A stretch of 20,361 nt of DNA from a virus (taxonomy: Duplodnaviria > Heunggongvirae > Uroviricota > Caudoviricetes), in IMG/VR virus record IMGVR_UViG_2734482780_000011, positions 1 to 20,361 of that record, one strand, 5' to 3'. The translations under genes were made by a program, and so were the position numbers. The notes below the pieces were generated by a model. It was not told the DNA's origin, made no database searches, and worked only from the letters and a program-made list of their open reading frames with translations. This document shows, piece by piece, positions 1-17,741 of the stretch; position 1 is the first letter of the stretch, and the number at the start of each line of letters is the position of its first letter.

Positions 1-1053
1 TTACGGGGTAATGCCAACTGCTGCCGCCACTTTGTCGCCACTTGGCAGCGTTGCCAGAGGATTGAAACGGAGCGCCGTTTCCAGATGATCCGGTGCCAGA
101 TGAGCGTAACGCATAGTCATTTTTATATCGTGATGTCCGAGGATTTTTTGCAAAGCAAGGATATTTCCACCCGACATCATGAAATGCGCCGCAAACGTAT
201 GGCGCAGAACGTGTGTCAGTTGACCGCGAGGGAGAACGATAGACGTTTTTTCCATTACGGATAAAAATTGAAAATAGCAGTCTGTGAAGAAATTGAACCC
301 ATCAAGTGCCATGATCTCTTCGTAAAGCTCTTTACTGATAGGGATGCTTCTGTTTTTCTTCCCCTTCGTTCTTACAAAGGTAATTCGGTATTTGGTCACC
401 TGTGAACGAGTAAGATTTACGGCTTCTCGCCAGCGTGCGCCTGTGCTTAAGCATATCTTAACTACCAGTGCCAGAATTGGGTCCTGACGTTTGCAATCAG
501 CCAGCAATTCAACAATCTGCTCATGGGTAAGCCATGCCATCTCTTTTTCTGCGATGGTGAATTTTCGCATGTTCTCCAGTGGGTTCGGATACGACCATTC
601 GCCCAGGCGGGATAGTTCGCTAAAAACACTACTTAGATAGCTTTGCTCCAGATTAATGGTGACCGGGCTTGCTCCTTTCTTCCATTTCTCGCTGAAGTAG
701 ATCTCGCCTGTCAGGCGTTTATCTCGATAGTGGGCAAACATTTTAGAGGTGAGATCGGTTGCAAGGGGATTGCCCAGAGCGTCAACCATCAACAGCAATT
801 TGTCATAGACATGCTGCCCAGCAGTCAGAGATTTACCATGTAGTTTGAACCATAGCTCAACCACGTCTTTCAGTGTTCGACGATCCACTGATTCACCCAG
901 CCAGGGTTTTGCTTCGGTTTCTTCCATCGTGTGACGCTCAAAAGCCAGAGCTTCGCCTTTGGTGGCGAATTGTTTACGCACACGACGTCCACTACGTCCG
1001 GCGGGATAACATTCGCAAAGCCATTTTCCTGTGGTGAGTTTTCGTACTGCCAT
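1..1053 (-). CDS. int: Tyrosine recombinase (integrase), 186/P2-type prophage
   Basis: ORF 1..1068 (-). N-terminus MAVRKLTTGKW...RKQFATKGEALAFE resembles 186/P2-type integrases; C-terminal region has the tyrosine-recombinase pattern (HVLRHTFA ... MTMRYAHL). Start placed at the internal Met (1053) because a hairpin plus T-tract overlaps the upstream ATG at 1068; recalled similarity, not searched. Confidence 0.9.
   Translation of the reverse strand: MAVRKLTTGKWLCECYPAGRSGRRVRKQFATKGEALAFERHTMEETEAKPWLGESVDRRTLKDVVELWFKLHGKSLTAGQHVYDKLLLMVDALGNPLATDLTSKMFAHYRDKRLTGEIYFSEKWKKGASPVTINLEQSYLSSVFSELSRLGEWSYPNPLENMRKFTIAEKEMAWLTHEQIVELLADCKRQDPILALVVKICLSTGARWREAVNLTRSQVTKYRITFVRTKGKKNRSIPISKELYEEIMALDGFNFFTDCYFQFLSVMEKTSIVLPRGQLTHVLRHTFAAHFMMSGGNILALQKILGHHDIKMTMRYAHLAPDHLETALRFNPLATLPSGDKVAAAVGITP
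21..41. repeat. Candidate attL core, direct repeat of 17509..17529 (20 of 21 nt identical)
   Basis: ctgccgccactttgtcgccac here versus ctgccgccaatttgtcgccat at 17509..17529, same orientation, at the two extremes of the prophage gene set; lies inside the last codons of int. Confidence 0.5.
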
Positions 1054-1060
1054 AAAAAAT

Positions 1061-1078
1061 GCCCTCATATCAGAGGGC
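1061..1078 (-). terminator. Hairpin (gccctc / gagggc, 6-nt loop) followed on the minus strand by ATTTTTT; terminator or 5' stem-loop between the 488-aa gene and int
   Basis: Perfect 6-bp inverted repeat at 1061..1066 / 1073..1078 with a T-run at 1054..1060 on the minus strand. Confidence 0.35.
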
Positions 1079-1081
1079 TAA

Positions 1082-1110
1082 ATTTAACTGTGTGTTTGAC
1101 CAGTGGTCAA
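1082..1110 (-). promoter_or_regulatory. Candidate int-proximal promoter (minus strand: -35 TTGACC, 17-nt spacer, -10 TTAAAT) overlapping a 15-bp palindrome TTGACCAGTGGTCAA (1096..1110)
   Basis: Read directly from the sequence; the palindrome is perfect around a central G. Confidence 0.3.
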
Positions 1111-1142
1111 TGTATGTAAGTAATAAACCATACATTAGACAT

Positions 1143-2609
1143 TTAGTCAGGAATTGAGTCTTGAAGGTGACGGACTGGAAAATTAAAACTGTAACTATCG
1201 TTATAAAAATCTGATAGATTGTAGATTCTTAATATTATGCGATTACATAATAATCTCAATATTTTAACTTCACGAATGAGAGGGATTATTTCACTATCAT
1301 CAGATTTGTTTCCATGAGCTGAATTGTTACGCTGTTTGAAACTGTTTTTTTCTAATGCTCCTAAGGTTAAGTTTAATGTTTCGTAAAATCTATTTGTTAG
1401 AATTGACTGTGGCGTTTGATTTAGACCAGATAATTTATTCGAGAGTAGATTCTTATCTTCCTCATCCAAAGAAATTTCTTCAGTTATAATTTTCGATAGT
1501 GATTGATGTAATTGTTTCCATAGATTTTTATTTACAAGTTTTGTATTGATCTTTGTGGGGTTTTTCTCTATAAATTTTCGTTGGATAAACTCTAATGTAG
1601 CACCGAAACCAACACCCTTTAGATGTAGGGGGGATGCAGCCGCATGCCAATAGAGCCAAGAGAAATGAGAGAAATCATATTTGTCATAATGGTCAACAAT
1701 TTTTTGAACCATTTGGCTAATTTCACTTTCATCAAGGAATAAATATTCTGAACCAACTGGATGTAATGGTGCAGGGGGTAGGCTATTAGCCGTATAATAT
1801 AAGTCATTGATAGCGTATTGCGTGTAAATTTCAGATTCAATAGAGTTGTAATTTTCATCCTTCAAAGTGCTTGATATATGAATTAATTTACACCCTAATA
1901 TAAAAGATAATGCATCTCTTATTTTCTTTCTCAGTTCGTTGTCACACTCCTTGCTATAAAGAATGAATCCAGGATTATATTTTTTGTCAATTGTTAAACA
2001 ATCATTATGTCCAAAGAAAATATCCATTTCATTAACGCGAATACTACAACATTTTAAACTATTAGATGTAGTATAGTTCTTATCGAAGAAGGAGATAGTA
2101 CTTCTGGCAGATACAAAGTTTCTTTTAATTGTATTTTCATATGATTCTTTAATGCTTGAAGTCCAGCAGTATTGCCCTATGTCTAAATTTGTAATCCAGT
2201 CAATTATGAATTTGTTTTTTTCTGCATGTTTAATTGAGTTGTTACATTGTTTTACAGTTGATATTGAGCATTTTATAGTGGCAAAGGTTTCATGATGGTC
2301 AGTTTTTATGTTTGTGCTTGACAGACTTATGCCATAAAATTCTAATGTAATGTTCTTGTTGTTAATATCTTCTAAAATAAGATATCCATCAATTTTATAT
2401 ATATCACCTTCTTTTCTCTCTGGCTCATTAAAAAAAATAATATTCAAAGCCTCCTTTTTGGGAGGCTTGTAAGTAATCTCTAAAATTAATCTAAGTTTAT
2501 CATCTCGAGATATTCTGAAAGAGTGGAAATTGTTTAATATTCGATTGCTATCTTTAAATTTCCAATGATCACATTGAATTTTTTCTAAGTCTTCCCAGCC
2601 AATATTCAT
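1143..2609 (-). CDS. Hypothetical 488-aa protein, AT-rich cargo gene; candidate defence/abortive-infection protein with a possible C-terminal HEPN-like motif
   Basis: Long uninterrupted ORF, visibly much more AT-rich than its neighbours. Start ATG at 2609 lies 15 nt after the cI stop, preceded by GGAAGG. Residues about 427..432 read RNNSAH (Rx4H pattern). No Walker motif or other recognisable domain seen by eye. Confidence 0.75.
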   Translation of the reverse strand: MNIGWEDLEKIQCDHWKFKDSNRILNNFHSFRISRDDKLRLILEITYKPPKKEALNIIFFNEPERKEGDIYKIDGYLILEDINNKNITLEFYGISLSSTNIKTDHHETFATIKCSISTVKQCNNSIKHAEKNKFIIDWITNLDIGQYCWTSSIKESYENTIKRNFVSARSTISFFDKNYTTSNSLKCCSIRVNEMDIFFGHNDCLTIDKKYNPGFILYSKECDNELRKKIRDALSFILGCKLIHISSTLKDENYNSIESEIYTQYAINDLYYTANSLPPAPLHPVGSEYLFLDESEISQMVQKIVDHYDKYDFSHFSWLYWHAAASPLHLKGVGFGATLEFIQRKFIEKNPTKINTKLVNKNLWKQLHQSLSKIITEEISLDEEDKNLLSNKLSGLNQTPQSILTNRFYETLNLTLGALEKNSFKQRNNSAHGNKSDDSEIIPLIREVKILRLLCNRIILRIYNLSDFYNDSYSFNFPVRHLQDSIPD

Positions 2610-2624
2610 TTAAATAACCTTCCA

Positions 2625-3197
2625 TTATATTTGAGATTCGATAGTTGATACAACGCGACCTTTTAACGAAATATCACTAACGTTACTTATAAAGCTTGTT
2701 AGGTTGTTTTCAATTTTTAGCTGACCAGCAGGCATGCGATACACTTTCCGAAACGATAAATTTCCATCAATTGATATTAACCAAGTCCCATCGGAATAGT
2801 TAGCATTTGAACAATCAACGAAATGAATTGTTTTTATATCTCTAATCACATGTAGATTATCGAAGCCTACGGGCAATAATTTATCGTCGAAGGTAACAAG
2901 TCCATCTTCGACAAGTACGCCATTTTTTAAAATATAGGACTGTAATTCTTTTACGCTATTAGATGACGTAGAGCCAAGAGTTTTAGAACCATTCCCTGTT
3001 ACTAGCCATTTGAGTGAGACGCCTGTCTCTAGCGCACACTGAATTATGTAGTCAGCAGGAAATGTATCTCGCAGGTAGCGGTTTGCCAAAGTACTACTGC
3101 TGATCCCCAATCGTTCACACAGCGCTTGTTTCGTCGTAACCCCATATGCTTCTAGCATACGCTCAATAGCTGCTTTTCCGCCTTTTCGCAAATCCAT
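2625..3197 (-). CDS. cI: Prophage immunity repressor CI (186-type, HTH N-terminus)
   Basis: ORF 2625..3299 (-). From the internal Met the sequence reads MDLRKGGKAAIERMLEAYGVTTKQALCERLGISSSTLANRYLRD...CALETG...WLVTG, an HTH repressor pattern like 186 CI. Start at 3197 gives 190 aa and leaves the operator/promoter region untranslated. Confidence 0.8.
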   Translation of the reverse strand: MDLRKGGKAAIERMLEAYGVTTKQALCERLGISSSTLANRYLRDTFPADYIIQCALETGVSLKWLVTGNGSKTLGSTSSNSVKELQSYILKNGVLVEDGLVTFDDKLLPVGFDNLHVIRDIKTIHFVDCSNANYSDGTWLISIDGNLSFRKVYRMPAGQLKIENNLTSFISNVSDISLKGRVVSTIESQI

Positions 3198-3205
3198 AAA
3201 ATTCC

Positions 3206-3276
3206 CGAAACGTGAGTAAATACCTTGACACTCACGTTTCGTGAGTTTAAATTCATCTCGAAACGTGAGTAATTCA
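3206..3276. promoter_or_regulatory. Lysis/lysogeny switch: candidate lytic promoter (-35 TTGACA 3225..3230, -10 TAAATT 3248..3253) with palindromic operator CTCACGTTTCGTGAG in the spacer, flanked by direct GAAACGTGAGTA half-site repeats
   Basis: Perfect inverted repeat ctcacg/cgtgag at 3231..3245 placed between the -35 and -10; GAAACGTGAGTA copies at 3206..3217 and 3262..3273. Position between divergent cI and apl matches 186/P2 switch architecture. Confidence 0.6.
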
Positions 3277-3320
3277 CTTCTTATCCCGGCTCGCCACAAG
3301 CCAATAGGAGATGTTGCATC

Positions 3321-3542: not shown

Positions 3543-3574
3543 TTCCATTTTGGGATACATCAGGGGTGTCGACT

Positions 3575-4084
3575 ATGTTTGATTACCAAGTTTCCAAACA
3601 TCCACATTTTGATGAAGCCTGTCGTGCATTCGCACTGCGCCACAACCTGGTGCAACTGGCAGAACGTGCAGGCATGAATGTGCAGATTCTGCGGAACAAG
3701 CTGAACCCAGCTCAACCTCATTTATTAACCGCACCAGAAATCTGGCTGCTTACCGATCTGACTGAAGATTCAACGCTGGTAGATGGTTTTCTGGCACAGA
3801 TTCATTGTCTGCCATGTGTACCGATTAATGAGGTAGCAAAAGAGAAACTGCCACATTACGTCATGAGTGCAACCGCAGAGATCGGGCGTGTTGCTGCAGG
3901 TGCGGTATCTGGCGATGTAAAAACCAGTACAGGTCGTCGTGATGCTATCAGCAGCATTAACTCTGTAACACGACTGATGGCGTTGGCTGCTGTTTCATTG
4001 CAGGCCCGTTTACAGGCTAACCCTGCGATGGCGAGTGCAGTTGATACCGTGACTGGCCTCGGTGCTTCATTCGGTTTGCTGTGA
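3575..4084 (+). CDS. cII: CII-like lysogeny establishment regulator (186-type)
   Basis: ORF 3566..4084; start at ATG 3575 with AGGGG upstream gives 169 aa, the size of 186 CII; position right after apl. Confidence 0.75.
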
Positions 4085-4091
4085 GGTGCTT

Positions 4092-4325
4092 ATGCTGACG
4101 AAAGAACCATCATTTGCGTCGCTGCTGGTAAAACAAAGTCCGGCAATGCACTACGGTCACGGCTGGATTTATTTACCTTGTGGGAAAAAGTGGCATCCAA
4201 GTTTTGAATTACAACCCCGGCAACAGGCTTACCGGGGAAGAAATAAAAAGCGATTCCTACAAAGATTTATGGTTAACGTGGCAAACAACCTGCGAACCAA
4301 GCGAAAAGTTTTTCTTGGAAGCTGA
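4092..4325 (+). CDS. Hypothetical small protein; its 5' part is repeated at 4828..4887
   Basis: ORF MLTKEPSFASLLVKQSPAMHYGHGW... starting at ATG 4092; 3' end overlaps the antisense 124-aa ORF, so it may be a disrupted gene copy. Confidence 0.3.
   Translation: MLTKEPSFASLLVKQSPAMHYGHGWIYLPCGKKWHPSFELQPRQQAYRGRNKKRFLQRFMVNVANNLRTKRKVFLGS
4109..4168. repeat. 60-bp direct repeat, copy 1 (partner 4828..4887, about 4 mismatches)
   Basis: atcatttgcgtcgctgctggtaaaacaaagtccggcaatgcactacggtcacggctggat versus the near-identical copy 2; weaker similarity continues a further 30 bp. Confidence 0.85.
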
Positions 4326-4737: not shown

Positions 4738-4827
4738 CAGTTTTCTCCTTTGAGGGGTAGATGATTGTTAGCACAAATAGTCTACCACTGAGGCACGCGC
4801 CGGGCGTGTAGAAAAATTCCCGGCACA

Positions 4828-4887
4828 ATCATTTGCATCGCTGCTGGTAAAACAAAGCCCGGCAATGCACTACGGTCACGGCTGGAT
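4828..4887. repeat. 60-bp direct repeat, copy 2 (partner 4109..4168)
   Basis: See copy 1; this copy continues into a 41-codon ORF (4865..4990) ending at the start of the next early gene. Confidence 0.85.
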
Positions 4888-6094: not shown

Positions 6095-6948
6095 GCACCA
6101 TCCTGAAATGGGCGGGTAATAAAACCGCCATTATGCCGGAACTGAAAAAATACCTTCCTGCTGGCCCGCGACTGGTTGAACCTTTCGCGGGTTCTTGTGC
6201 TGTGATGATAGAGACGGATTACCCCAGCTATCTTGTTGCGGATATTAATCCTGATTTAATCAACCTCTATAAAAAGGTTGCTGCTGATTGCGAGGCGTTT
6301 ATATCTCGTGCCAGAGCTTTATTTGAGGAAGCAAACAGGGAGGTGGCTTATTACAACATAAGGCAGGAGTTTAATTACTCCACTGAAATTACTGATTTCA
6401 TGAAAGCGGTATATTTCCTGTATCTCAATCGTCATGGTTACCGTGGGTTATGTCGCTATAACAAGAGCGGGCATTTCAACATTCCCTACGGGAATTATAA
6501 AAATCCGTATTTCCCTGAAAAAGAAATTCGCAAATTTGCAGAAAAAGCCCAGCGAGCAACGTTTATCTGCGCCAGCTTTGATGAAACGCTGGCGATGTTG
6601 AAGGCGGGGGATGTGGTGTATTGCGATCCGCCTTATGACGGTACGTTTTCCGGCTATCACACTGATGGCTTCACTGAGGATGACCAGTATCACCTGGCAT
6701 CCGTTCTTGAACATCGATCATCTGAAGGTCATCCGGTCATTGTTTCTAACAGTGACACATCCCTGATTCGTTCGCTGTATCGCAATTTCACTCACCACTA
6801 CATCAAGGCAAAACGCAGCATCGGCGTGTCGGCTGGCGAGAGTAAATCTGCAACAGAAATCATTGCTGTTTCCGGGGCGCGCTGCTGGGTGGGATTTGAT
6901 CCTTCGCGTGGCGTGGATAGTTCTGCTGTGTACGAGGTGCGTGTATGA
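6091..6948 (+). CDS. dam: DNA adenine methyltransferase (Dam-like N6-adenine MTase), no adjacent restriction gene
   Basis: N-terminus [26 protein letters not shown]-binding FAGSCAV, catalytic DPPY ([10 protein letters not shown]); GGAGGTG precedes the ATG at 6091; ORF-track start at 5977 is an upstream extension. Confidence 0.9.
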
Positions 6949-7757
6949 GTCATGACGATATGAGCAACTCTAGCGGCTTTAACGAGGCCGCTGCAGCATT
7001 TTCATGGAACGGCCCGAAAAAGGCCATTAACCCTTATCTGGACCCGGCGGAAGTTGCGCCGGAGTCTGCACTTTCAAACATGATCACTCTGTACGCTGCC
7101 GATAACGAGCAGGAACAGCTGCGCCGCGATGCACTGAGTGAGCAGGTCTGGGAGCGTTATTTCTTTAATGAATCCCGTGATCCTGTCCAGCGCGAAATGG
7201 AGCAGGATAATCTCATTAGTCGGGCAAAGCTGGCGCATGAGCAGCAGCGTTTTAACCCGGACATGGTCATTCTGGCGGACGTCAGCGCCCAGCCCACCCA
7301 CATCAGCAAGCCGCTGATGCAACGTATCGAATACTTCAGCAGCCTGGGCAGGCCAAAGGCTTATTCCCGCTATTTGCGTGAGACGATTAAGCCATGTCTG
7401 GAGCGACTGGAGTATGTACGCGACAGTCAGCTATCCGCTTCTTTCCGTTTTATGGCAAGCCATCAAGGGCTTGAGGGCCTGCTGATCCTGCCTGAAATGA
7501 GTCAGGATCAGGTAAAACGCCTGTCCACCCTGGTACGCCAGGTGAAGCTGAAAAGGCGTAAAGACTACAAACAGCGAATTACAGATCATCAGCATCAGCA
7601 GCTCGTCTATGAACTGAAGTCCAGAGGATTTGATGGCAGCGAGAAAGAGGTCGATTTACTCCTTCGCGGTGGCAGTATTCCGTCAGGAGCAGGCCTGCGT
7701 ATTTTCTATCGGAACCAGCGTTTGCAGGAAGATGATAAGTGGCGGAACCTGTATTAA
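6945..7757 (+). CDS. Hypothetical 270-aa protein
   Basis: ORF start overlaps the dam stop (ATGA at 6945..6948); acidic/glutamine-rich, no recognised domain; does not look like a rolling-circle replication initiator. Confidence 0.55.
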
Positions 7758-7826
7758 TTACGCAGGTTAACAATTCGTGCTCTTAATAATACCAGGCATA
7801 TCAGGCTGATGAACGTAAAAAAACGT

Positions 7827-7867
7827 TTTACATCAGTAAGATTATTATATACTGTAAATATAAACAG
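7827..7867 (+). promoter_or_regulatory. SOS-regulated promoter: -35 TTTACA (7827..7832), -10 TACTGT (7850..7855), LexA box CTGTAAATATAAACAG (7852..7867)
   Basis: The 16-bp sequence fits the LexA consensus CTGT-N8-ACAG with an AT-rich centre and overlaps the -10, the arrangement of LexA-repressed promoters such as 186 p95. Confidence 0.65.
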
Positions 7868-7910
7868 TGGTTATGTATACAGTGTTTCTTGTGGTGTTAT
7901 AGGAGGAAAG

Positions 7911-8099
7911 ATGCAGGACTATTTTTTGGAGTCTTTGAAGCTCCAGCGCATTGATTTTTTTCTTAAGCTTGTAGCGGCTAGTGAGTGTAGTGATGAAGAG
8001 AAAGGGCTGGCTCTGCAGTGGGTTTCTGAACTGACAGATGAACTCATGGCAAAAATCAGAACCCACGAATACAACCGCTCAATGGATGTCATCAGCTGA
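7911..8099 (+). CDS. Small SOS-induced protein, possible Tum-like antirepressor N-terminal module
   Basis: AGGAGG 8 nt before ATG 7911 (ORF-track start at 7809 lies upstream of the promoter); first gene after the LexA box; followed by a DinI-like gene, as in the 186 tum region. Confidence 0.45.
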   Translation: MQDYFLESLKLQRIDFFLKLVAASECSDEEKGLALQWVSELTDELMAKIRTHEYNRSMDVIS

Positions 8100-8109
8100 G
8101 GTGACTTTT

Positions 8110-8343
8110 ATGCGCATTGAAATAATGATCGATAAAGAGCAGAAGATTAGCCAGTCTACCCTGGACGCCCTTGAATCCGAGCTTTACCGCAATCTGCGCC
8201 CCCTGTATCCCAAAACGGTAATTCGCATTCGCAAAGGTAGCTCTAACGGTGTGGAACTAACCGGACTGCAACTGGATGAAGAAAGAAAACAAGTGATGAA
8301 AATTATGCAGAAGGTGTGGGAGGACGACAGCTGGCTGCATTAA
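8110..8343 (+). CDS. DinI-family protein
   Basis: MRIEIMIDKEQKISQSTLDALESELYRNLRPLYP...KVWEDDSWLH aligns by eye with E. coli DinI (MRIEVTIAK...AIDALAGELSRR...ETWESADDW). Confidence 0.8.
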   Translation: MRIEIMIDKEQKISQSTLDALESELYRNLRPLYPKTVIRIRKGSSNGVELTGLQLDEERKQVMKIMQKVWEDDSWLH

Positions 8344-8749
8344 GAAACGTTGCCCCCAGGAGGATTCATTCTGATGGGGGCTAGTTTGGGTAGCGAGTGA
8401 AACGAGGCGTAAGGTGGGCGGCCATTTTGATAAGTGATTGTACGATTTGTGTTGTGAGTTCAACGGGACGATGCAACGCTATCCTTAATCAAGGGGACGT
8501 TGCTCATACCCATCGATGCAATGAAAATCCATACTCATGGGGAAGACCAGAATGTCCCTGCCTTTTTCATTTTGTTCAGCACATGCACTATGGCCATTGC
8601 CTTCCCAAGCTAGCTATCGTAATCACTCAGCGTCAGTAAACTACTGAAAAATTGTTTTACCTTGTATATCAATAATGCCAAATCATACCCAAAAAATCGA
8701 AAATAATTAGATCGACAGGCAGAAGGCAATGTGAATAATCTTAAAAACC

Positions 8750-8779
8750 TTGACTGTCAGTGAGGTTTGGTTCTATAAA
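8750..8779 (+). promoter_or_regulatory. Candidate promoter of the darTG operon (-35 TTGACT, 18-nt spacer, -10 TATAAA)
   Basis: Read from the sequence, about 30 nt upstream of the darT start. Confidence 0.4.
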
Positions 8780-8810
8780 TAGACTTACGAATTTGAAAGG
8801 ATGAGTTGAA

Positions 8811-9392
8811 ATGAGCGAAAGGAAAAGAATTGAAGATCAGTATCTTCTCTATCATTTAACATGTATGGATAATCTACCTAGTATTTTAGACACAGGATTA
8901 AGATCTCGTGCATCAGTAAAAGGTGAGTTTGTTGATGTGGCCGACGGTGAAATAATAACAGGTCGCGAAGCATTAAATTTGCAAACAATGGTTCCTTTTC
9001 ATTTCTTTACTAAGAATCCATTTGATGGAAGAGTCCTGAAAGATCATAAGGAAAAATCATTTTGTATTATTTCGGTTTGTCGGGCATTTGCCAAAGAAAA
9101 TGGTTGGAAAGTTATCCCTAAACATCCATTATCCACCAGTTCTGTTATAGACCTCTTAGATTATGAACAAGGAATGGCCCAAATTGACTGGGAGCTAATG
9201 AATATAAGGGATTATAAAAATGCAGAATGCAAATCTGTATGTATGGCTGAGTGTTTATCAAGTGTAACGGTCGAGCCGAAAAATTTCCATTGCATCTTTG
9301 TCAAAAATGATAACGAAAAAAAATATGTTGAAGGGTTGATAAAACAACAAGGATTAAGTATATTGATAACGATCAACACTTATATGTTCTAA
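8811..9392 (+). CDS. darT: DarT-like ssDNA ADP-ribosyltransferase toxin (DUF4433 family)
   Basis: LYHLTCMDNLPSIL, VPFHFF, DWELM and a late acidic segment match my recollection of DarT signatures (IYHITHIDNLKGIL, VPFYF, DWEAM); AT-rich; immediately followed by a macrodomain gene. Confidence 0.7.
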   Translation: MSERKRIEDQYLLYHLTCMDNLPSILDTGLRSRASVKGEFVDVADGEIITGREALNLQTMVPFHFFTKNPFDGRVLKDHKEKSFCIISVCRAFAKENGWKVIPKHPLSTSSVIDLLDYEQGMAQIDWELMNIRDYKNAECKSVCMAECLSSVTVEPKNFHCIFVKNDNEKKYVEGLIKQQGLSILITINTYMF

Positions 9393-9396
9393 TTCT

Positions 9397-10368
9397 ATGA
9401 TTAAGTATGCAAGCGGAAATCTTCTAAACTCTACATCGCAAGCTCTTGTGAATGCTGTAAACTGCCAAGGAGTCATGGGAAAGGGTATTGCTTTGGCTTT
9501 TAAAGAAACTTTTCCCTATAATTTCGAAGTTTATAAGAGAGCATGCGCCACTGGTACAATGAAAATTGGACAGGTTTTAATTGTAGAGGAAAAGGGAAAA
9601 ATAATTGTAAACTTTCCCACTAAAGATAGTTGGAGAAAAAAATCAACATATGATTTTATCTCGCAAGGCCTTGAATCTTTAGCAAAAATTATAGATGAAA
9701 AAAAAATTACATCAATATCAATACCACCTTTAGGCTGTGGTAATGGGGGCCTCGATTGGAATAAGGTTGAGGCTCTTATTTTAAAAACTTTTCAAAATTT
9801 AGATAATGTTGATGTGGTAATTTATCCGCCTGCAACTAACAATCAACTTTCAAAAAATAAAAATGTTATTAATGCTAAGCATCTTTTGGTTCACTACGCC
9901 TATGGAAAATTAAAAGTTAAGCAAAAATATTCCCTTTATACAGTTTTTTATATTTGCGAATGTATTGAGAAAGCAAATCTTTTTTTATTCGATTTTAAAC
10001 ATGGTCGGCCATACTCTTCTGAGTTAGAAAATATTATGAAGGATATAGCAAACCTTAAAGTTGAGTTGCAAGGAGATTTTGATGCTTTTATTGAAGATTA
10101 TATTAATACTCATCAATCCAAAGAGTTACAAACCGAGTTTGGTAAACTAATCTCAACTTTAAATCCAAGTATAAGTTTGCTCAATGCTCTTAAAAATAAG
10201 ATTGATTATATAGATAGCGTACATGTGATCACGAGAATTGCTAAAGAAAAAGATCATGGCTTGCATATTGACAATTTCAAAGAATATGAAAATATTGTGC
10301 AGCATTTAATTAAAAATGGATTGGTAATCGAAGATATTTTTAACGAACTAAAAATAAAGGGAAGTTAG
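9397..10368 (+). CDS. darG: DarG-like macrodomain antitoxin
   Basis: N-terminus GNLLNSTSQALVNAVNCQGVMGKGIALAF is the macrodomain nucleotide-binding signature (N-x-x-N / G-x-G loop); 4 nt downstream of darT; AT-rich. Confidence 0.75.
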   Translation: MIKYASGNLLNSTSQALVNAVNCQGVMGKGIALAFKETFPYNFEVYKRACATGTMKIGQVLIVEEKGKIIVNFPTKDSWRKKSTYDFISQGLESLAKIIDEKKITSISIPPLGCGNGGLDWNKVEALILKTFQNLDNVDVVIYPPATNNQLSKNKNVINAKHLLVHYAYGKLKVKQKYSLYTVFYICECIEKANLFLFDFKHGRPYSSELENIMKDIANLKVELQGDFDAFIEDYINTHQSKELQTEFGKLISTLNPSISLLNALKNKIDYIDSVHVITRIAKEKDHGLHIDNFKEYENIVQHLIKNGLVIEDIFNELKIKGS

Positions 10369-10920
10369 TAGCGCTATTTTCAATTTTTTTGCTGAAATTG
10401 CGCATGCACACTCTCACGCATTATAGATGCGGCGTTAATCCCGCCAGGAGTGTTGTTTAATAAATTGAACTATTTCTGCATTGAAGGATCAACTTACGCA
10501 TTCGCTGACAACGCAGGCACTCTCCTGGCTAAGCAGAAATTCAGAGTAACCAACTGGCACTTTTACAACAATTTTCTTATCAGTTGCGGCTCCATGACTT
10601 TCTGGTGGGATAACAAAGCAATTAAGGCGTGGTATTGTAAGTATCCCGCATAATCATGCTAGTAACATTTGTCCCCCATGTAACCTAATTAAGGCAACTT
10701 CCGCTCTTCGCTCACAGTGAACCTCCATGTTTGTAAACCCGTATATTTCGTTTTTTAAGTGGTCATTCAGATACGGATTTTCACTTCTCTTGGCTGTGCA
10801 TGACTATGCTGCATGAAATTGCATGATCGTTTGAGGATCGTTTTTGCTGAGGCCCCCCAGAACTGGCGGGCTTTCGCTTATGTCATGCAGGTGCATGAAA
10901 ATCACTGCATAAAGCGGGCA

Positions 10921-10939
10921 GGCGTGGCGGGGATACGAG
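10921..10939. other. Candidate cos site (P2/186-type cohesive end region)
   Basis: ggcgtggcggggatacgagcgcgcgct resembles the P2/186 cohesive-end region as I recall it (GGCG[A/T]GGCGGGGAAAGCA...GCGCGCT); recalled, not searched. Four TGCATGA copies lie 20 to 125 bp upstream. Confidence 0.5.
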
Positions 10940-11091
10940 CGCGCGCTAAGTCATATAAGAGTTATATATTGATTTGATTGCTGGACATGCATACAGTATC
11001 GCTCTATCATCTAATAAATCTTAGAGTATTTGACAATGTTTGGATAAAATGGAACCTAACTTATTCATAATCCGCTAAACAGGGATGTCAG

Positions 11092-12006
11092 ATGCCATAC
11101 CAATTGGTAGAGCTTAGCCCCGTAGCTAACGATCTTGAACAGTTAGGAACCAAAGAGAAGTTTTGGTTCTATTTCTCCGATGACACTGTAAATTTGCAGT
11201 TGTTTAAGTACTCTAGGCCAGATACTGGCGAGCATTGGTCTGAAAAGTGTGCTGCTGAGTTATGTCATTTGCTTAACATTCCACATGCTAGCTATGATTT
11301 GGCGCGATACAATGGTCGATTCGGTGTGGTGACTCAGAATATCATTCCATCTGGTTTCCGGATGGTAATGGGAAATGAAGTGCTTCACAGTTCGACATTC
11401 GATTATCCTGGGCCTTTACAAGCCGGGGAAAAGCCGGTAAGGGTCAGAGAACACACTGTCACAAGGGTATTGGGTTGTTTAGATAGGGAATCTATCAAGC
11501 CTCCTCCGAGTGTATATGATCTAACCGGGCTAAATGCAGCAGATGTATTTTGTGGATATTTGATGCTCGATGCACTTGTGAGTAATCAAGATCGCCATCA
11601 TGAAAATTGGGCGATCATGCTTAACAATGAAACTGGTGAGCAGTTTTTGTGTCCAACATACGATCATGCCGCTAGTTTAGGAAGGGAGATGTTAGATGAT
11701 GAGCGTAACGAACGGCTTAATACTAAAGATAAAAATCGACAAATCCCATGTTTTGTAAGAAAAGCTCGCTCTGAGCTATTCAAAGCAAAAACTGATAAAA
11801 AGCCCTTGCTGACCGTTGAAGCATTTCAACATGCAGTTGAAGGGAGAGTTGCCGCTCGCGACCATTGGTTAGGTAAGTTGAGCGTTTTAACAGAAGATTC
11901 CATTACAGATGTGTTTAACCAAGTGCCTTCATCGTGTATATCCGACAGTGCACGTAGATTTGCAACGTTAATGGTAATGGAAAATCGCAGAAGGTTACTA
12001 GAATGA
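11092..12006 (+). CDS. HipA-like serine/threonine kinase, short form lacking the N-terminal domain (304 aa)
   Basis: GTKEKFWF (compare HipA GAQEK), catalytic-loop-like LVSNQDRHHENWAIM (compare HipA D-x-H-x-K-N) and LCPTYDHAASLG (compare HipA P-x-YD) in the HipA order and spacing. Confidence 0.65.
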   Translation: MPYQLVELSPVANDLEQLGTKEKFWFYFSDDTVNLQLFKYSRPDTGEHWSEKCAAELCHLLNIPHASYDLARYNGRFGVVTQNIIPSGFRMVMGNEVLHSSTFDYPGPLQAGEKPVRVREHTVTRVLGCLDRESIKPPPSVYDLTGLNAADVFCGYLMLDALVSNQDRHHENWAIMLNNETGEQFLCPTYDHAASLGREMLDDERNERLNTKDKNRQIPCFVRKARSELFKAKTDKKPLLTVEAFQHAVEGRVAARDHWLGKLSVLTEDSITDVFNQVPSSCISDSARRFATLMVMENRRRLLE

Positions 12007-12743
12007 CTAATACAAACTCCGTTTACGTCGCATGGCAGGCACCAGATACCAGAGACTGGCATGTTGTTGGTAACTTGCAAGAGCGCAAATCGGGGTATGT
12101 TTTCAGGTATACCAAAGGTGCTCTTAAATCTACTAAATTTACAAAGTTTAGCGGCATGAGTGATGTTCGTGAAACTTATGTTTCGGAAGAATTGTTTCCT
12201 CTTTTTAAAAATCGCCTTTTATCACCGAGACGTCCAGAGTATCCGAGTTTCATTAAATGGCTTGGATTTGAAGAAGATAAGGTAAATCCTATCGATATTC
12301 TTGCTCGCTCGGGAGGCCTACGAAGCACTGATCAGCTGCAGATTTTCAAAAAAATTGATGTTGATTCTGATGGTAACTTTGAGCATTTTTTCTTCTTACA
12401 TGGACTTGGTTACTTAAATAGCTTAGCTAATGCTCGTGTATCTGAATTGAAACCGGGGCAAATTTTGCGTCTTTGCTTGGATCTTCAAAATGAATACGAT
12501 GGGGATGCTGTTGTCGTTCGTGCAGATAAACCAGCTGAAATCGTTGGTTATTGCCCTAGGTATTTAAGTAATGATATCAAGAAGATGTTATTGGATGATC
12601 CAAAATCAATCACTTTAACGGTCGAAAAGATTAGCGATGATGCTCCTCATAACTATCGGTTATTATGTAAATTATCAGGAGTACTAAGCCAAGCCTGTCA
12701 ATCGACGCTGATTCCTCAGGATGAGTTTGAACCTATTGAGTAA
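12003..12743 (+). CDS. Two-domain partner: HipA-N/HipS-like N-terminal domain fused to a C-terminal HIRAN-like domain (246 aa)
   Basis: Start overlaps the kinase stop (ATGA). N-terminus VYVAWQ...VGNLQ...YVFRY...LFPLFKNRLLSPRR resembles the HipA N-terminal domain. C-terminus KPGQILRLCLDLQNEYDGDAVVVRADKPAEIVGYCPRYLSNDIKKMLLDD fits the HIRAN pattern. Confidence 0.55.
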   Translation: MTNTNSVYVAWQAPDTRDWHVVGNLQERKSGYVFRYTKGALKSTKFTKFSGMSDVRETYVSEELFPLFKNRLLSPRRPEYPSFIKWLGFEEDKVNPIDILARSGGLRSTDQLQIFKKIDVDSDGNFEHFFFLHGLGYLNSLANARVSELKPGQILRLCLDLQNEYDGDAVVVRADKPAEIVGYCPRYLSNDIKKMLLDDPKSITLTVEKISDDAPHNYRLLCKLSGVLSQACQSTLIPQDEFEPIE

Positions 12744-12748
12744 ATGAA

Positions 12749-12774
12749 GAAAAGCCACCAAACGGTGGCTTTTC
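12749..12774. terminator. Bidirectional rho-independent terminator between the HipA-like module and Q
   Basis: 11-bp perfect stem gaaaagccacc / ggtggcttttc with a 4-nt loop, T-rich flanks on both strands, between convergent stops at 12743 and 12778. Confidence 0.7.
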
Positions 12775-12777
12775 TTA

Positions 12778-13818
12778 TTATGGGACTATATCTAGCGAGT
12801 AGGTATTAAACTGTATCGCCTCCTTGCCAAGCCAATCATTCATCTCCTGTAATCGCTTTTGTAGTGGCATTAGCTCATTTCGGACGAATACACGGCTTGC
12901 CTTCTCCACATCCCCAAACCCCCCAACATTATTCGGCATAATCCCCATCATTTGCGGCGGCACACGATGCGCCGCCATCATGTCGTCCCGGCTTACGTTC
13001 TTGATGTTCAGAAACTCATCCTTTGCCGCCACTTCTGACAGCGGGATGATCTGAAGCCCGTCCTTTTTGCCGTTAGGCGAGTACATAAACAGGTTGCGGA
13101 AGTTGCCCGGACCTTTGGCGCTTTTCATCGCGTTGCGGAGGTTGTTCACATCCTCCTGGTTCTGAGCGGCATCGGTCATGTACATTATGAATCCTGCATG
13201 GCTGCCATTAATATAATATTTGCGTCGGAACAGCGTGGCGGACTCGTTGAGCAGGGCTGACGGAATGGCAGAAAGATAGCCGGGCAGGCCGTAGATCTCC
13301 TGGTTGATATCGGGTTCCATCAGATGAAAGATGCTGCCTTTCGTGAACTGATACGGCTGGGTTGTCATACCGTATTGCACAAACCAGTAGGTATCCAGGT
13401 CTAACCCGCGTCGGGTGTATTTTGCCAGAGCAGGCTCAAGGGCGATAACTTCACCGAAGCGGTTCGTGCGTTTCTCCAGGTAGGCGTTACCAAATACCAG
13501 ATAGTCCTGCACAAAACGTGAAAAAGCCTGCTGGCTAAGCAGCGGGTGAGGGATGTAGGTGCTGGTTAGAATGTTGCATTTCACTGCAATGGGTGAGCTG
13601 TGATGCACGGCGGCGCGGAAGGTTCGCGCCAGTCCGTCAAAGCTGACGGGCGGCTCATACCAACGGTCCATCTGTACGCATTCCACATAGTCCAGTAATT
13701 CTCGGCGGTCCAGTACTGGAATGGGATCGCCGAAGCTGAATGCTTCGGCTGAAGTCTGGCTTTTATGCTGGGTCTGGTTCTGCGACGCAGCGCGGTTCTT
13801 CTTACTCTTTCCCATCAA
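12778..13818 (-). CDS. Q: Portal protein (P2 gpQ-like)
   Basis: 346 aa, close to the size of P2 gpQ; start overlaps the stop of the upstream terminase fragment as in the P2 PQ operon; 3' end points toward the cos-like site. Confidence 0.8.
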   Translation of the reverse strand: MMGKSKKNRAASQNQTQHKSQTSAEAFSFGDPIPVLDRRELLDYVECVQMDRWYEPPVSFDGLARTFRAAVHHSSPIAVKCNILTSTYIPHPLLSQQAFSRFVQDYLVFGNAYLEKRTNRFGEVIALEPALAKYTRRGLDLDTYWFVQYGMTTQPYQFTKGSIFHLMEPDINQEIYGLPGYLSAIPSALLNESATLFRRKYYINGSHAGFIMYMTDAAQNQEDVNNLRNAMKSAKGPGNFRNLFMYSPNGKKDGLQIIPLSEVAAKDEFLNIKNVSRDDMMAAHRVPPQMMGIMPNNVGGFGDVEKASRVFVRNELMPLQKRLQEMNDWLGKEAIQFNTYSLDIVP

Positions 13819-14231
13819 AAAATCTCCACAATATTGCTGGTATTGGCGGACTCGCCCTGCAGCGGTTCGTTAAACAGTGCGTGCATTGTTGCCCAGGCCA
13901 GATCGGCGTGGCTGGCTTCTTCGCTGCGGCTGGCTTCATAGGTCGGGCGGTTGCCACTGGCGGTGGTGGCGCGACGGATTGCCATAAATGACTGCGCTAT
14001 GTCGGTGTGTCCGGCGTCAAACTCCAGACGGCGGTGGCTGATAATGTCGTAGGCCTTGAGTACCAGAGCGTTTTTAACGTTGGGGTTGTAGACAAACTCC
14101 CGGACGGCAGGAAAGAACGCTTTCACGTTCTCATAAACCCCGTGACCGACGCCTGTCGAGTCAATGCCGATATAGGTCACGTTGTACTGCTCGGTCAGTT
14201 TTTTGATTCCGCCCTTAATCATCTCAACCAT
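13815..14231 (-). pseudogene. P: Terminase large subunit (gpP-like), C-terminal 138-aa remnant
   Basis: Only the C-terminal part of what should be an approximately 590-aa protein; coupled to Q; no upstream start or ATPase region present. Confidence 0.65.
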
Positions 14232-14298
14232 GCGTTACAGCTCGATCCCCGCTGTGGCGTGAAAAAAGACAAACAGCAGCTGGAGCGCAGACTGCGCA

Positions 14299-15618
14299 AT
14301 GACAGCCGCTGACAGAACGTGCCCCCGCGCACGGGCGGCACGGGGTGGCGAAAGGCACAGCCACATCAAAACCCCGTCCACCGCCCTTTATTTCAGGAGA
14401 AAGCAGCATGAAGTTTGTTGCGCCAGAACAGGCAACGCCGCAGGTTTACTTACTGCGCCGTTGTCGTCTTTGCGCCGCACGGCATCACTGACGGGAAATG
14501 TCCTGAAAACTGTAGCAGGTGCGCCGGTTGCACTTTTGCGGTCTGGATTATCCGGTTTACGTGCTGTTGCTGTTATGTTTATGAATCCTCTGGCGGTACT
14601 GCGCGGTGGACTGGCCGCCGCAGGCACGGTGCTGCGAGTACTGGCATCTGGTCCACTGGCGATGCTGCGCGTTGCCCTGTATGCCATATCTGGTCTGTTA
14701 GGTGCTCTGCTCAGTCCGATAGGTCTTGTGGTTACTGCACTGGCGGGCGTGGCGCTGGTTGTCTGGAAATACTGGCAACCCATCACCGCATTTCTCGGTG
14801 GCGTGGTGGAAGGATTCAAAGCGGCGGCAGGTCCCATCAGTGCAGCGTTCGAACCGCTTAAGCCCGTGTTCCAGTGGATTGGCGACAAAGTGCAGGCGCT
14901 GTGGGGCTGGTTTACTGATCTGCTGACGCCCGTTAAGTCGACCTCTGCCGAACTGCAGAGCGCAGCGGCAATGGGGCGGCGATTCGGGGAGGCACTGGCG
15001 GAAGGGCTGAATATGGTCATGCATCCGCTGGACTCCCTGAAATCCGGCGTTTCCTGGTTGCTGGAGAAGCTCGGCATTGTCAGTAAAGAGGCCGCAAAGG
15101 CAAAACTGCCGGAAAGCGTGACGCGTCAGCAACCTGCGACGGTGAATGCAGACGGTAAAGTGATGATGCCATCGGGTGGTTTTCCATCATGGGGATATGA
15201 CTTTGCGGGGATGTATGACAGCGGCGGGTATATCCCGCGCGGGCAGTTTGGCATCGTCGGTGAAAACGGGCCGGAAATTGTTAACGGCCCGGCAAATGTG
15301 ACCAGCCGGAGAAATACAGCTGCACTGGCTGCCGTTGTTGCCGGAATGATGGGCGTTGCTGCCGCGCCAGCAGAGCTTCCACCGTTGCACCCTTTGGCAC
15401 TTCCCGCGAAAGGTGGAGAAGCAATTGTGAGTCGCGCAGCCACTGTGCCGCTCGTTCAACGGATTGAGGCACCGACGCAGATCATCATTCAGACGCAGCC
15501 AGGACAAAGTGCGCAGGATATTGCGCGGGAGGTGGCACGCCAGCTTGATGAACGTGAACGCAGGCTGAAGGCAAAAGCCAGGAGTAACTACAGCGATCAG
15601 GGGGGATACGACGCATGA
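14299..15618 (+). pseudogene. T: Tail tape measure protein (gpT-like), C-terminal portion only
   Basis: Gly/Ala-rich helical repeats and GGYIPRGQFGIVGENGPEIV near the C-terminus; 439-codon frame versus about 800 aa expected; followed directly by U and D. Confidence 0.65.
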
Positions 15619-16100
15619 TGATGGTGCTGGGATTGTACGTGTTTATGCTGCGCACCGTTCCGTATCAGGAACTGCAGTATCAACGCAGCTGGCGACATGC
15701 GGCAAACAGTCGGGTAAACCGACGTCCGTCCACGCAGTTTCTGGGACCGGAAAACGACATGCTGACGCTTTCCGGTGTTCTTATGCCGGAAATAACAGGC
15801 GGCAGGCTGTCGTTGCTGGCACTGGAGCAGATGGCAGAACAGGGGAAAGCATGGCCCCTGATTGAAGGCAGCGGCACGATTTACGGCATGTATGTGATTG
15901 AGGGACTGAATCAGACTAAAACGGAGTTTTTCCGCGATGGTATGCCGCGCCGGATTGAGTTCACCCTGTCGCTCAAACGGGTGGATGAATCCCTGTCCGA
16001 TATGTTCGGTGATCTCAGTGCGCAGCTGAATAATTTGCAGGATACGACAACGTCTGCCTTAAGCGATATCAGTAAAACGGTGGGAGGGCTGCTGTCGTGA
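15615..16100 (+). CDS. U: Tail protein gpU-like
   Basis: 161 aa, same size and position as P2 gpU between T and D; start overlaps the T stop. Confidence 0.8.
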   Translation: MMMVLGLYVFMLRTVPYQELQYQRSWRHAANSRVNRRPSTQFLGPENDMLTLSGVLMPEITGGRLSLLALEQMAEQGKAWPLIEGSGTIYGMYVIEGLNQTKTEFFRDGMPRRIEFTLSLKRVDESLSDMFGDLSAQLNNLQDTTTSALSDISKTVGGLLS

Positions 16101-17197
16101 ATTTCAGCTCTGAACTGCTTAACAAAGGCAACAAAACTCCGGCATTCAGCATCAGTATTGAGGGTAAGGATATCACCACTGTGCTGGATAACCGCCTGAT
16201 GAGTCTGACGCTGACGGACAATCGGGGCTTTGAAGCGGACCAGCTTGATCTGGAGCTGGACGACGCCGACGGAAAAATCGTGCTGCCGCGCCGTGGTGCG
16301 GTCATTACGCTGGCGTTGGGCTGGAAGGGGCAGTCGCTTTTCCCGAAAGGAGCATTCACGGTGGACGAGATTGAACACACTGGCGCACCGGACCGCCTGA
16401 CTATCCGGGCGCGAAGTGCTGATTTTCGTGAAACCCTGAATATCCGCCGTGAAAAATCGTGGCACAAGACCACCGTTGGGGAAGTGGTGAAGGAAATAGC
16501 TGTGCGGCACAAACTGAAGATGGCATTGGGTGAAGACCTGTCGGATAAACCTGTGGAACATATAGACCAGACCAATGAGAGTGACGGCAGTTTTCTGATG
16601 CGGCTGGCGCGCCAGTACGGTGCTATTGCGTCGGTGAAAAATGGCAATCTGTTATTCATCCGGCAGGGACAGGGTAAAAGCGCCAGCGGTAAACCACTAC
16701 CGGTTATCACTATCACACGTAAGGACGGCGACAGTCACCGCTTTACCCTGGCAGATCGCGGAGCCTACACGGGCGTAATTGCCAGCTGGTTGCATACCCG
16801 CGAACCCGCGAAGAAAGAAAGCACCACGGTGAAGCGTAAGCGCAGGACTAAGAAGCAGAAGAAAGAGCCGGAAGCGAAGCAGGGCGATTACCTGGTGGGT
16901 ACAGATGAAAACGTGCTGGTACTTAATCGCACCTATGCCAACCGGAGCAACGCCGAACGGGCGGCGAAAATGCAGTGGGAACGCCTGCAACGTGGCGTTG
17001 CGTCATTCTCGCTACAACTGGCAGAAGGTCGGGCGGATCTCTACACGGAAATGCCAGTGAAAGTCAGAGGCTTTAAACAGCCGATAGATGATGCGGAATG
17101 GACTATTACCACCCTGACGCATACTGTCAATCCGGATAACGGTTTTACGACCAGTCTGGAGCTTGAAGTGAAGATTAATGATTTCGAAATGGAATGA
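16097..17197 (+). CDS. D: Tail protein gpD-like
   Basis: 366 aa, GTGA overlap with the U stop, located immediately before ogr as in P2/186. Confidence 0.8.
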   Translation: MNFSSELLNKGNKTPAFSISIEGKDITTVLDNRLMSLTLTDNRGFEADQLDLELDDADGKIVLPRRGAVITLALGWKGQSLFPKGAFTVDEIEHTGAPDRLTIRARSADFRETLNIRREKSWHKTTVGEVVKEIAVRHKLKMALGEDLSDKPVEHIDQTNESDGSFLMRLARQYGAIASVKNGNLLFIRQGQGKSASGKPLPVITITRKDGDSHRFTLADRGAYTGVIASWLHTREPAKKESTTVKRKRRTKKQKKEPEAKQGDYLVGTDENVLVLNRTYANRSNAERAAKMQWERLQRGVASFSLQLAEGRADLYTEMPVKVRGFKQPIDDAEWTITTLTHTVNPDNGFTTSLELEVKINDFEME

Positions 17198-17287
17198 TTC
17201 TTCGTAATAGAGAACTTTTAAGTTTTCAAAATGGAATAATGCGGTATCATTATTGTGAATTTAGCAAAAATGGGGAGAACTCGAAAA

Positions 17288-17629: not shown

Positions 17630-17741
17630 CTCCACAAAATGGGGACATCAAAGAAAAGCAGTGGCACTAATTAAGACTGATGCCCTGCGGAAAAGTTCTG
17701 CGGTTGTGCAAAAAAATTTCATTTTCAGGGCAACTTCAGTT

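Follow-up and report, generated by a model that had tools for sequence, protein, structure and literature searches.

Here we analyse a stretch of 20,361 nucleotides (nt) from a virus of the Caudoviricetes (IMG/VR virus record IMGVR_UViG_2734482780_000011, positions 1 to 20,361), below called the window. It carries a 186-like prophage, and our interest concerns a gene, here named X, that lies between the repressor gene cI and the integrase gene int (Table 1). A first-pass annotation of the bare letters had pointed out an AT-rich open reading frame (ORF) of 488 amino acids (aa) at this place, and our results agree. The G+C content (GC) is 30.5% in X, 39% in cI and 47.9% in int, and GC at third codon positions is 0.26, 0.33 and 0.48, respectively. 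Along X, GC stays at 0.28–0.33, as against 0.45–0.50 in the flanks. The strand opposite X holds only trivial ORFs of 40–47 aa. The cI gene is a compositional mosaic, with 47.6% GC in its N-terminal helix-turn-helix (HTH) half and 34.2% in its C-terminal half, and in composition this AT-rich C-terminal half forms one block with X. The integrase ORF spans 1..1068, with the annotated start at 1053.

The product of X is identical to RefSeq WP_040079454.1, labelled 'hypothetical protein', and has a mass of 57 kDa and an isoelectric point of 6.7. Compared with a 78%-identical homologue, the ratio of nonsynonymous to synonymous substitution rates is 0.20 overall, 0.19 in the N-terminal domain and 0.17 in the C-terminal domain. 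We found no transmembrane segment in X (maximum 19-residue Kyte-Doolittle mean 1.21), and its N terminus does not resemble a signal peptide. Hence, X is a genuine, selectively maintained, soluble protein. The genes rex of lambda and sieB of P22 are exclusion genes in a lysogenic-operon position. The place of X is typical of such genes, and one might suspect it of being a Sie-type superinfection-exclusion protein that acts at the membrane or blocks injection. However, X lacks a hydrophobic segment and a signal-peptide-like N terminus, and its predicted fold is globular and soluble; this explanation is almost certainly wrong.

The junction with cI is tight. The cI stop codon TAA (2627–2625) is followed by the spacer TGGAAGGTTATTTAA, 15 nt long (2624–2610), and then by the ATG of X at 2609, with GGAAGG 8 nt ahead of it. 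The gap of 15 nt and the GGAAGG are as the first-pass annotation had read them. Junctions of 13–16 nt with a Shine-Dalgarno sequence recur in five independent loci (the window, L004, L007, L011 and L012). No terminator-like site was found between cI and X, or anywhere ahead of the hairpin at 1078–1061. Because the junction is conserved and no terminator precedes this hairpin, co-expression of X with cI is plausible. The earlier term 'translationally coupled' was an overstatement, since X has its own Shine-Dalgarno sequence after a gap of 15 nt; what is seen is a tight, conserved junction. In phage 186, the lysogenic operon runs pL-cI-int-orf69-terminator. By analogy with this operon, X is most likely co-transcribed with cI from the lysogenic promoter, and would hence be made in every lysogen. 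In phage lambda, rexAB is co-transcribed with cI. Like X, rexAB lies directly downstream of the immunity repressor gene, so both would be made in every lysogen, which for X is presumed. Unlike X, RexAB is a two-protein membrane-depolarising system, and its proteins and mechanism are unrelated to those of X.

Table 1. Features of the window discussed in the text (strand given where reported).
Feature	Position	Strand	Remarks
Integrase gene int, P2/186-type tyrosine integrase	1..1053	(-)	350 aa; downstream of X; Pfam Int_N 3e-32, Phage_integrase 7.5e-22; RefSeq WP_000290937.1
int leader	1054..1137	(-)	Conserved left border of the slot; present in other cargo-bearing prophages
GC hairpin and T-run	1078-1061	(-)	Just before the int ATG (1053)
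Promoter-like element TTGACC-N18-TAAATT	1110-1081	(-)	
LexA-box-like element CTGG-N8-ACAG	1103-1088	(-)	Inside the promoter-like element
Inverted repeat ATGTATG-N12-CATACAT	1135-1110	(-)	
X coding sequence	1143..2609	(-)	488 aa; ATG start, TAA stop (ORF list)
C-terminal helical domain of X, Apea-like HEPN	1146..1730	(-)	Residues 294-488
Predicted catalytic segment E420-KNSFKQ-R427-N-N-S-A-H432-G433	1311..1352	(-)	Conservation in 132 sequences and model
N-terminal beta-rich domain of X	1740..2609	(-)	Residues 1-290; ~16 strands and helix 224-238
cI-X junction	2610..2624	(-)	15 nt; Shine-Dalgarno GGAAGG (2623-2618)
CI repressor gene, 186-type	2625..3197	(-)	190 aa; immediately upstream of X; Pfam Phage_CI_repr 1e-27, Phage_CI_C 8.5e-17; RefSeq
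DarT	8811-9392		PADLOC 2e-36
DarG	9397-10368		PADLOC 1e-80
PDC-M03 HipA-like kinase	11092-12006		PADLOC 2e-122
PDC-M03 HIRAN protein	12003-12743		PADLOC 3e-93
Portal fragment	12778-13818	(-)	Abuts tail genes
gpU	15615-16100		
gpD	16097-17197		
RybB small RNA, host	17584-17662	(-)	Full length; Rfam RF00110, 105 bits

Family and domains of X

X belongs to a large family of stand-alone proteins that extends across Proteobacteria and beyond. An indexed protein search with X returned 16 clusters, and an exhaustive profile search 1081 clusters at 50% identity with E ≤ 1e-3, 295 of them with E ≤ 1e-30. Nearly all of the top 150 clusters listed are full length (470–490 aa), and members are labelled 'hypothetical' in every source. 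A scan with a 16-sequence alignment, covering one genome per species, found 20 loci, among others from Pseudomonas, Bradyrhizobium, Ralstonia, Paraburkholderia, Nitrosomonas, Campylobacterales, Acidocella and Bryobacteraceae. Some of these distant homologues occur without any cI or prophage.

The strongest conservation lies in the C-terminal half. In an alignment of 132 sequences, with a mean identity to the window protein of ~25% (a set of 95 sequences was also used), R427, H432 and G433 are invariant in all 132, E340 is present in 131 and E420 in 130, and N397, R457, Y469 and D471 are also nearly invariant. Residue 428 is always polar (N in 118 sequences, H in 12, D in 2). The motif RNNSAH occupies residues 427–432 (window 1331–1314), and its generalized form R[NH]xxAHG occurs in 149 of 164 sequences. 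The presence of a bare Rx4-6H motif is by itself not significant, since X contains two (RILNNFH at residue 23 and RNNSAH at residue 427) against ~1.7 expected from composition; of these two, only RNNSAH is conserved.

An AlphaFold model built with 16 sequences (predicted local distance difference test 81.5, predicted template modelling score 0.83) is beta-rich in residues 1–290 and helical in residues 294–462. RNNSAH is placed at the end of the helix 418–431, followed by a loop. This is consistent with the position of Rx4-6H at the end of HEPN helix 3, and a conserved Rx4-6H with a polar N, D or H after the arginine is the pattern tied to active HEPN RNases (Anantharaman et al. 2013, PMC3710099). 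The conserved acidic residue expected upstream of the motif in HEPN domains is represented by E340 or E420.

Profile comparisons point in the same direction. The plurality consensus of the family matches PF18739 (HEPN_Apea) with 29.3 bits over its full length and 32.0 bits for the C-terminal part, compared to a gathering score of 24.4, and this match covers positions 5–131 of the 136 positions of the profile. When the 95 members were scanned singly, the top Pfam families were all HEPN families (RiboL-PSP for 15 members, Apea for 12, MAE_28990 for 5), all below threshold; the best HEPN_Apea E-value among these 12 natural members was a weak 2e-4. The PADLOC model of Csm6 was matched by 4 of the 95. 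Sequence searches of the PDB with three profiles yielded only noise (antibody chains, INCENP, mS35). We conclude with high confidence that the C-terminal domain of X is of the HEPN kind and comes nearest to the Apea-like family. The HEPN domain suspected by eye in the first-pass annotation is well supported by an invariant motif and by a family consensus above the HEPN_Apea gathering score. The predicted structure places the motif at a helix end within a helical domain, and HEPN_Apea is matched by the family consensus, though not by the window protein itself.

A HEPN domain need not be an enzyme. The HEPN domain of AbiA is reported to be inactive and to mediate dimerisation (PMC13064643), and X might similarly use it as a silent dimerisation or ligand-binding module, any activity residing in the N-terminal domain, where R35, N141, Y218, R227 and R231 are near-invariant. 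Yet, the invariant R, H and G and the polar residue after R in all 132 sequences form the pattern of active RNases (PMC3710099), and the N-terminal domain matches tube and Hcp proteins, with no enzymatic fold detected in it. We consider a silent HEPN domain quite improbable.

Conserved residues of the N-terminal domain also include G68, W138/W149 and G239, the last of which is again near-invariant. Its mean pairwise identity is 24.7%, versus 33.1% for the HEPN domain. The N-terminal domain diverges faster and yet retains near-invariant residues, and a conserved pocket or surface for binding is a better match to this pattern than a hypervariable sensor. The structural matches of this domain were tube and Hcp proteins; split-barrel and TBP-like folds followed, their Z being lower. 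A Foldseek search of BFVD gave nothing at E ≤ 1e-3; its weak matches again include distal tail and tube proteins. No sequence-level relationship was found, neither X nor the family consensus had a Pfam match in its N-terminal half, and local hhalign of residues 1–140 against 141–290 revealed no internal duplication. The likeness of the modelled domain to Hcp and phage tail-tube proteins is reproducible and modest, and we treat it as a lead, not as homology.

The cargo slot between cI and int

In phage 186, cI (22433–23011) and int (21423–22433) overlap by 1 nt, and the first-pass annotation was right, as far as this phage is concerned, that the two genes are normally adjacent. Our comparison shows that the cI-int junction of 186-like prophages is a genuine cargo slot, or hotspot, in Escherichia coli, Klebsiella, Citrobacter and Serratia. 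The order cI-X-int, with a junction of 13–16 nt and a Shine-Dalgarno sequence, was found in Citrobacter, in Serratia and in two metagenomic loci, where X is 65%, 36% and, in the metagenomic pair, 32% and 61% identical. The metagenomic locus with 32% identity, L011, lacks int itself; after its X come just the int leader and a fragment of 75 aa. Among five IMG/VR contigs, four have cI-X-int (34–78% identical) and one ends inside X after cI (60%). Every enterobacterial locus shows X in tight linkage with cI, and in the cI-linked loci examined the GC of X is 31–36%, AT-rich relative to their elements.

Seven different cargos lie between cI and the same int leader, with at least six besides X in sister prophages. 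Those besides X are hypothetical proteins (two of 400 and 173 aa, one of 314 aa and, in Klebsiella phage 4LV2017, one of 349 aa), a 589-aa ATP-dependent nuclease, a 558-aa DUF4041 protein and a 505-aa KAP P-loop NTPase. The sister prophages sit at the same site beside rcdA, and several of those in E. coli have the identical integrase WP_000290937.1. The idea that X is cargo between cI and int is thereby supported, as the slot is closed in phage 186 and holds other genes in sister prophages with the same integrase. None of the slot cargos was reported as tested for phage protection in the literature searched.

Homology between the window and prophages with other cargo stops on the left at 1133–1137. 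On the right it stops either at ~3283–3306 or at ~3003, inside cI; the latter breakpoint was seen with L014, and homology to phage vB_EcoM-813R9, which has another cargo, starts there. These right-hand breakpoints indicate that a cargo, when exchanged, takes along cI or the C-terminal half of cI, which agrees with the AT-rich composition of that half. Hence, the recombination that swaps the cargo can also swap the oligomerisation domain of CI, while the DNA-binding domain is kept. Co-evolution of cI and X was considered and rejected, because CI proteins from loci with X resemble one another no more than they resemble CI proteins found with other cargo. The link between X and cI is positional, rather than a functional co-evolution.

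The CI proteins themselves vary among the sister prophages. Several are 293–313 aa long and match the HTH region of the window CI twice, as in a duplicated HTH (L002 6941–7822, L003 6941–7879, L015 2903–3844, L038 6144–7687). In strain Ec1117, two tandem CI genes lie upstream of the KAP NTPase cargo.

The left border of the slot is the int leader, present in 11 of the 12 cargo-bearing prophages examined (the window, L002, L003, L004, L007, L011, L012, L014, L037, L038 and L040). In the twelfth (L039), an insertion of ISKox3 removed its upstream part. The leader is absent from phage 186, and a scan upstream of int found it conserved in 342 of 5426 complete E. coli genomes. Its 7-mer repeat covaries, being ATGTATG-N12-CATACAT in E. 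coli and ATGTTTG-N12-CAAACAT in Citrobacter, Serratia and others. The half-sites ATGTTTG/CAAACAT are those of the CII site at pE of phage 186, where the spacing is 14; the pE-like site of the window (3574–3601) also has a spacing of 14. The LexA-box-like element has the core CTG-N10-CAG and is a perfect CTGT-N8-ACAG in four loci. Judged from these sequence elements, the leader suggests a dedicated int promoter, possibly controlled by CII or by the SOS response, combined with a terminator or attenuator that would end the cI-X transcript.

Comparable hotspots are known. One between cI and int has been described in K139-like Vibrio phages (PMC9122126), and the integrase-primase hotspot is stated to hold 8% of the defence systems of P2 (preprint 10.64898/2026.02.27.708500). 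Studies of E. coli in 2022 stressed the gpA-portal and Z/fun hotspots of P2 (Rousset et al. 2022; Vassallo et al. 2022). The slot of X resembles the P2 tin/old and Z/fun hotspots and that of the K139-like phages in its conserved phage flanks and its interchangeable cargo, which in these hotspots is often defensive. It shares with the Vibrio hotspot the position between repressor and integrase, and falls within the integrase-primase interval of the 2026 preprint (10.64898/2026.02.27.708500). It differs from the known hotspots in that it belongs to 186-like prophages beside rcdA, in that cI (or its C-terminal half) is swapped along with the cargo as a single block, and in that its left border is a dedicated int leader or promoter element.

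Possible function of X and its relation to known systems

We think it fairly probable that X is a phage-triggered, single-protein anti-phage RNase with an ApeA-like HEPN domain, expressed together with cI. Phage exclusion is the hypothesis suggested by the genomic context and by analogy with ApeA and the HEPN proteins of abortive infection (Abi); RNase activity, trigger, target and defence phenotype are what we infer from them. The analysis itself shows the gene with its conservation, its fold and motif, the slot, and that the family stands alone. X would be made continuously from the cI transcript but stay inactive as long as the lysogen is not infected. A cue of infection, perceived via the non-catalytic N-terminal domain or via a pocket between the two domains, would then switch X on. 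Two HEPN domains might pair their Rx4H motifs and cleave RNA without metal, with tRNA anticodon loops or phage RNA as targets, and this cleavage would block the superinfecting phage.

Gao and co-workers are said to have presented ApeA in 2020 as a single-gene defence. Like X, ApeA is a stand-alone protein on mobile elements, with a C-terminal Apea-like HEPN domain, an intact Rx4H motif and a large non-catalytic N-terminal part. ApeA forms rings of dimers, senses a ligand in a pocket between its HEPN domain and the N-terminal one and cuts tRNA anticodon loops, and Ec1ApeA cuts the genomes of single-stranded RNA phages (preprints 10.64898/2026.01.26.701840, 10.64898/2026.03.20.713152). By analogy, both proteins may share the principle that a cue sensed outside the active site leads to cleavage of RNA or tRNA.

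X might even be a divergent member of the known ApeA system, new only in its location. The family consensus matches HEPN_Apea over nearly the whole model and above its gathering score, and the architecture 'ApeA-NTD1 + HEPN(Apea)' (Anantharaman et al. 2013, PMC3710099, their Table 2; e.g., PCC7424_5050) has the same gross layout as X. ApeA-NTD1 is an N-terminal domain of ~300 aa that consists mostly of beta-strands, has conserved aromatic residues and is joined to a HEPN domain of the Apea type (PMC3710099), and this architecture has no experimental characterisation in the literature searched. The likeness is one of gross layout, and the N-terminal half of X has no Pfam match. Moreover, the solved ApeA structures are mainly alpha-helical and consist of three domains, which in Ec2ApeA (~580 aa) are N 1–198, Mid 199–309 and HEPN 335–583 (preprints 10.64898/2026.01.26.701840, 10.64898/2026.03.20.713152). 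In ApeA, the N-terminal part comprises a catenin-like helical domain and, after it, a Mid domain that resembles PafA, whereas in X, which is shorter at 488 aa, the first 290 residues are beta-rich and Hcp/tail-tube-like. No ApeA model of PADLOC matched the window protein at E ≤ 1 or the 95 members at E ≤ 0.1 (the members matched eight families). The database used was PADLOC-DB 2.0.0, which we take to contain an ApeA model. Searches that used either the C-terminal profile or the profile of 95 sequences retrieved only unannotated family members or fragments and no annotated ApeA, and none of the homologues from indexed protein searches has a precomputed Pfam domain. Because it lacks a PADLOC match, differs in its N-terminal and Mid architecture and has an N-terminal half without a Pfam family, X is, by its sequence, not the characterised ApeA. 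A divergent ApeA is accordingly unlikely, although X may belong to the branch with ApeA-NTD1.

How X might sense infection is a more speculative matter. Possibly, its N-terminal domain drives ring assembly of HEPN dimers, convergent with the doughnut of ApeA, or it mimics the tail-tube or sheath proteins of the infecting phage, so that phage morphogenesis is the trigger. With mimicry, the N-terminal domain could co-assemble with, or be displaced by, tail-tube or sheath-type phage proteins. We regard this pair of ideas as distinctly doubtful. If either were true, X would stand for a new and widespread family of single-protein defences (about 1000 clusters at 50% identity), in which sensor and effector are paired in a way not described before.

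Other HEPN systems share part of these properties. AbiV, AbiF/AbiD, AbiJ, the C-terminal domain of AbiA and RnlA/LsoA are, like X in our preferred interpretation, HEPN RNase effectors against phages, with differing non-catalytic N-terminal domains and often borne by prophages or plasmids. However, AbiV and AbiF belong to type III toxin-antitoxin systems, in which a repeat RNA lies upstream, and RnlA/LsoA have protein antitoxins, while X has neither, and no Abi model of PADLOC matched X or the 95 members. A type III toxin-antitoxin system such as AbiF or AbiV was rejected, given the cI-X gap of 15 nt and the lack of a tandem repeat or an Rfam match within 1143–3300; the tandem-repeat and Rfam searches thus found no riboswitch or RNA antitoxin near X. 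HEPN-MNT (HepT/MntA) and RnlA/LsoA were rejected as well, as the neighbours of X are cI and int and no neighbour is conserved in 21 distant loci. PrrC/RloC and Csm6/Csx1 were discarded because X has no N-terminal ABC ATPase or CARF domain.

The neighbourhoods of the distant homologues also bear on whether X acts alone. An all-against-all BLASTP of 146 neighbours in these 21 loci found no conserved neighbour, the one link being that between the two Bradyrhizobium loci. Directly upstream lie genes of various kinds (epimerase, uracil-DNA glycosylase, nitrilase and others), and the window has no room for a partner gene beside X. A two-gene system was therefore rejected, and the lack of a shared neighbour indicates that X works alone. 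Single neighbours match AbiEii, MzaA, DRT UG29 and several candidate systems of PADLOC (PDC), a defence-island signal that is suggestive only.

Trypsin-like peptidase genes (Pfam Trypsin_2) lie less than 4 kb from X homologues in 4 of the 21 non-enterobacterial loci (L020 4462–5520, L032 6483–7538 and a further two distant loci). Of these genes, just the two copies from Bradyrhizobium are related to each other.

An alternative explanation might be that X is an addiction toxin or a factor in lysogeny control, for instance an RNase that kills cells upon loss of the prophage or tunes the cI and int transcripts. HEPN RNases are often the toxins of toxin-antitoxin systems, X is tightly linked to cI in enterobacteria, and it is kept in decayed prophages (the window, L041 and L042). 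Yet, no antitoxin gene, MNT partner or repeat-RNA antitoxin is found next to X, its distant homologues occur without cI or prophage, and there is no special relationship among the CI proteins of loci that carry X. Furthermore, unrelated nuclease and NTPase cargos typical of defence occupy the same slot. We judge this explanation improbable.

Several observations weigh against an anti-phage RNase made with cI. A consensus scan did not find the lysogenic promoter, and the co-transcription of X with cI rests on the analogy with phage 186. No model of Pfam, NCBIfam, PADLOC or PHROG detects the window protein, the only hits being Cas_Cmr5 (E 0.07) and phrog_32666 (E 0.009, function unassigned). It is the artificial consensus alone that passes the HEPN_Apea threshold, natural members staying below it (21.8 bits for the best of eight listed). 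HEPN domains can be catalytically inactive, as in AbiA (PMC13064643). A constitutive toxic RNase without an antitoxin must inhibit itself, and for X such self-inhibition is an assumption. Many neighbours of the distant homologues are housekeeping genes, so that the family is not clearly enriched in defence islands. Finally, the protein is not mentioned in the literature searched.

If X is indeed an active defence, it would add a large family, missed by Pfam, NCBIfam, PADLOC and PHROG, to single-protein HEPN immunity. Comparison of X with ApeA would show one RNase effector wired to different infection sensors. Independently of its function, the defined borders of the slot, and cargo that is swapped with the immunity region, offer a simple rule for mining further candidate systems.

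The prophage remnant around X

The first 4.5 kb of the window are 100% identical to E. coli GF130 (NZ_CP172140), whose prophage is an intact 186-like one. Past ~7.5 kb the window departs from GF130. The window prophage is a decayed remnant of ~17.5 kb, in which the head genes and most tail genes are missing and gpA is truncated to 270 aa without a Pfam match. DarTG and the candidate two-gene system PDC-M03 occupy the classical gpA-portal hotspot of P2 in this element. GF130 has the same int-X-cI module, but its gpA-portal hotspot holds a PIN-domain protein. Despite its decay (region 6945–17200), the window prophage retains X, DarTG and PDC-M03, and the IMG/VR loci L041 and L042 seem to be similar remnants that keep X.

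The host gene for RybB directly follows the last prophage gene and precedes a ybjL-like permease gene (17742–19427). These positions indicate that the element integrated between rcdA and rybB, and its attachment site is probably at or next to rybB.

Of the 5426 complete E. coli genomes, 1 carries X. The exact protein occurs on 64 contigs of a larger collection, each time as 'hypothetical protein', and tblastn of X against 50,697 GenBank phages gave no match. A 25%-identical homologue of X was seen on a high-GC IMG/VR contig (L049, 806–1720 and 6001–7446), ~4 kb from P2-type gpU and gpD tail genes. It sits at a different position in a P2-like element, which indicates that P2-like phages captured the X family more than once.

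A segment of ~63 nt from the fil region occurs twice in the window (4106–4168 and 4825–4887). Each copy matches the position of the other copy in GF130, with 95% identity, which fits two annotated ORFs of the Fil family.

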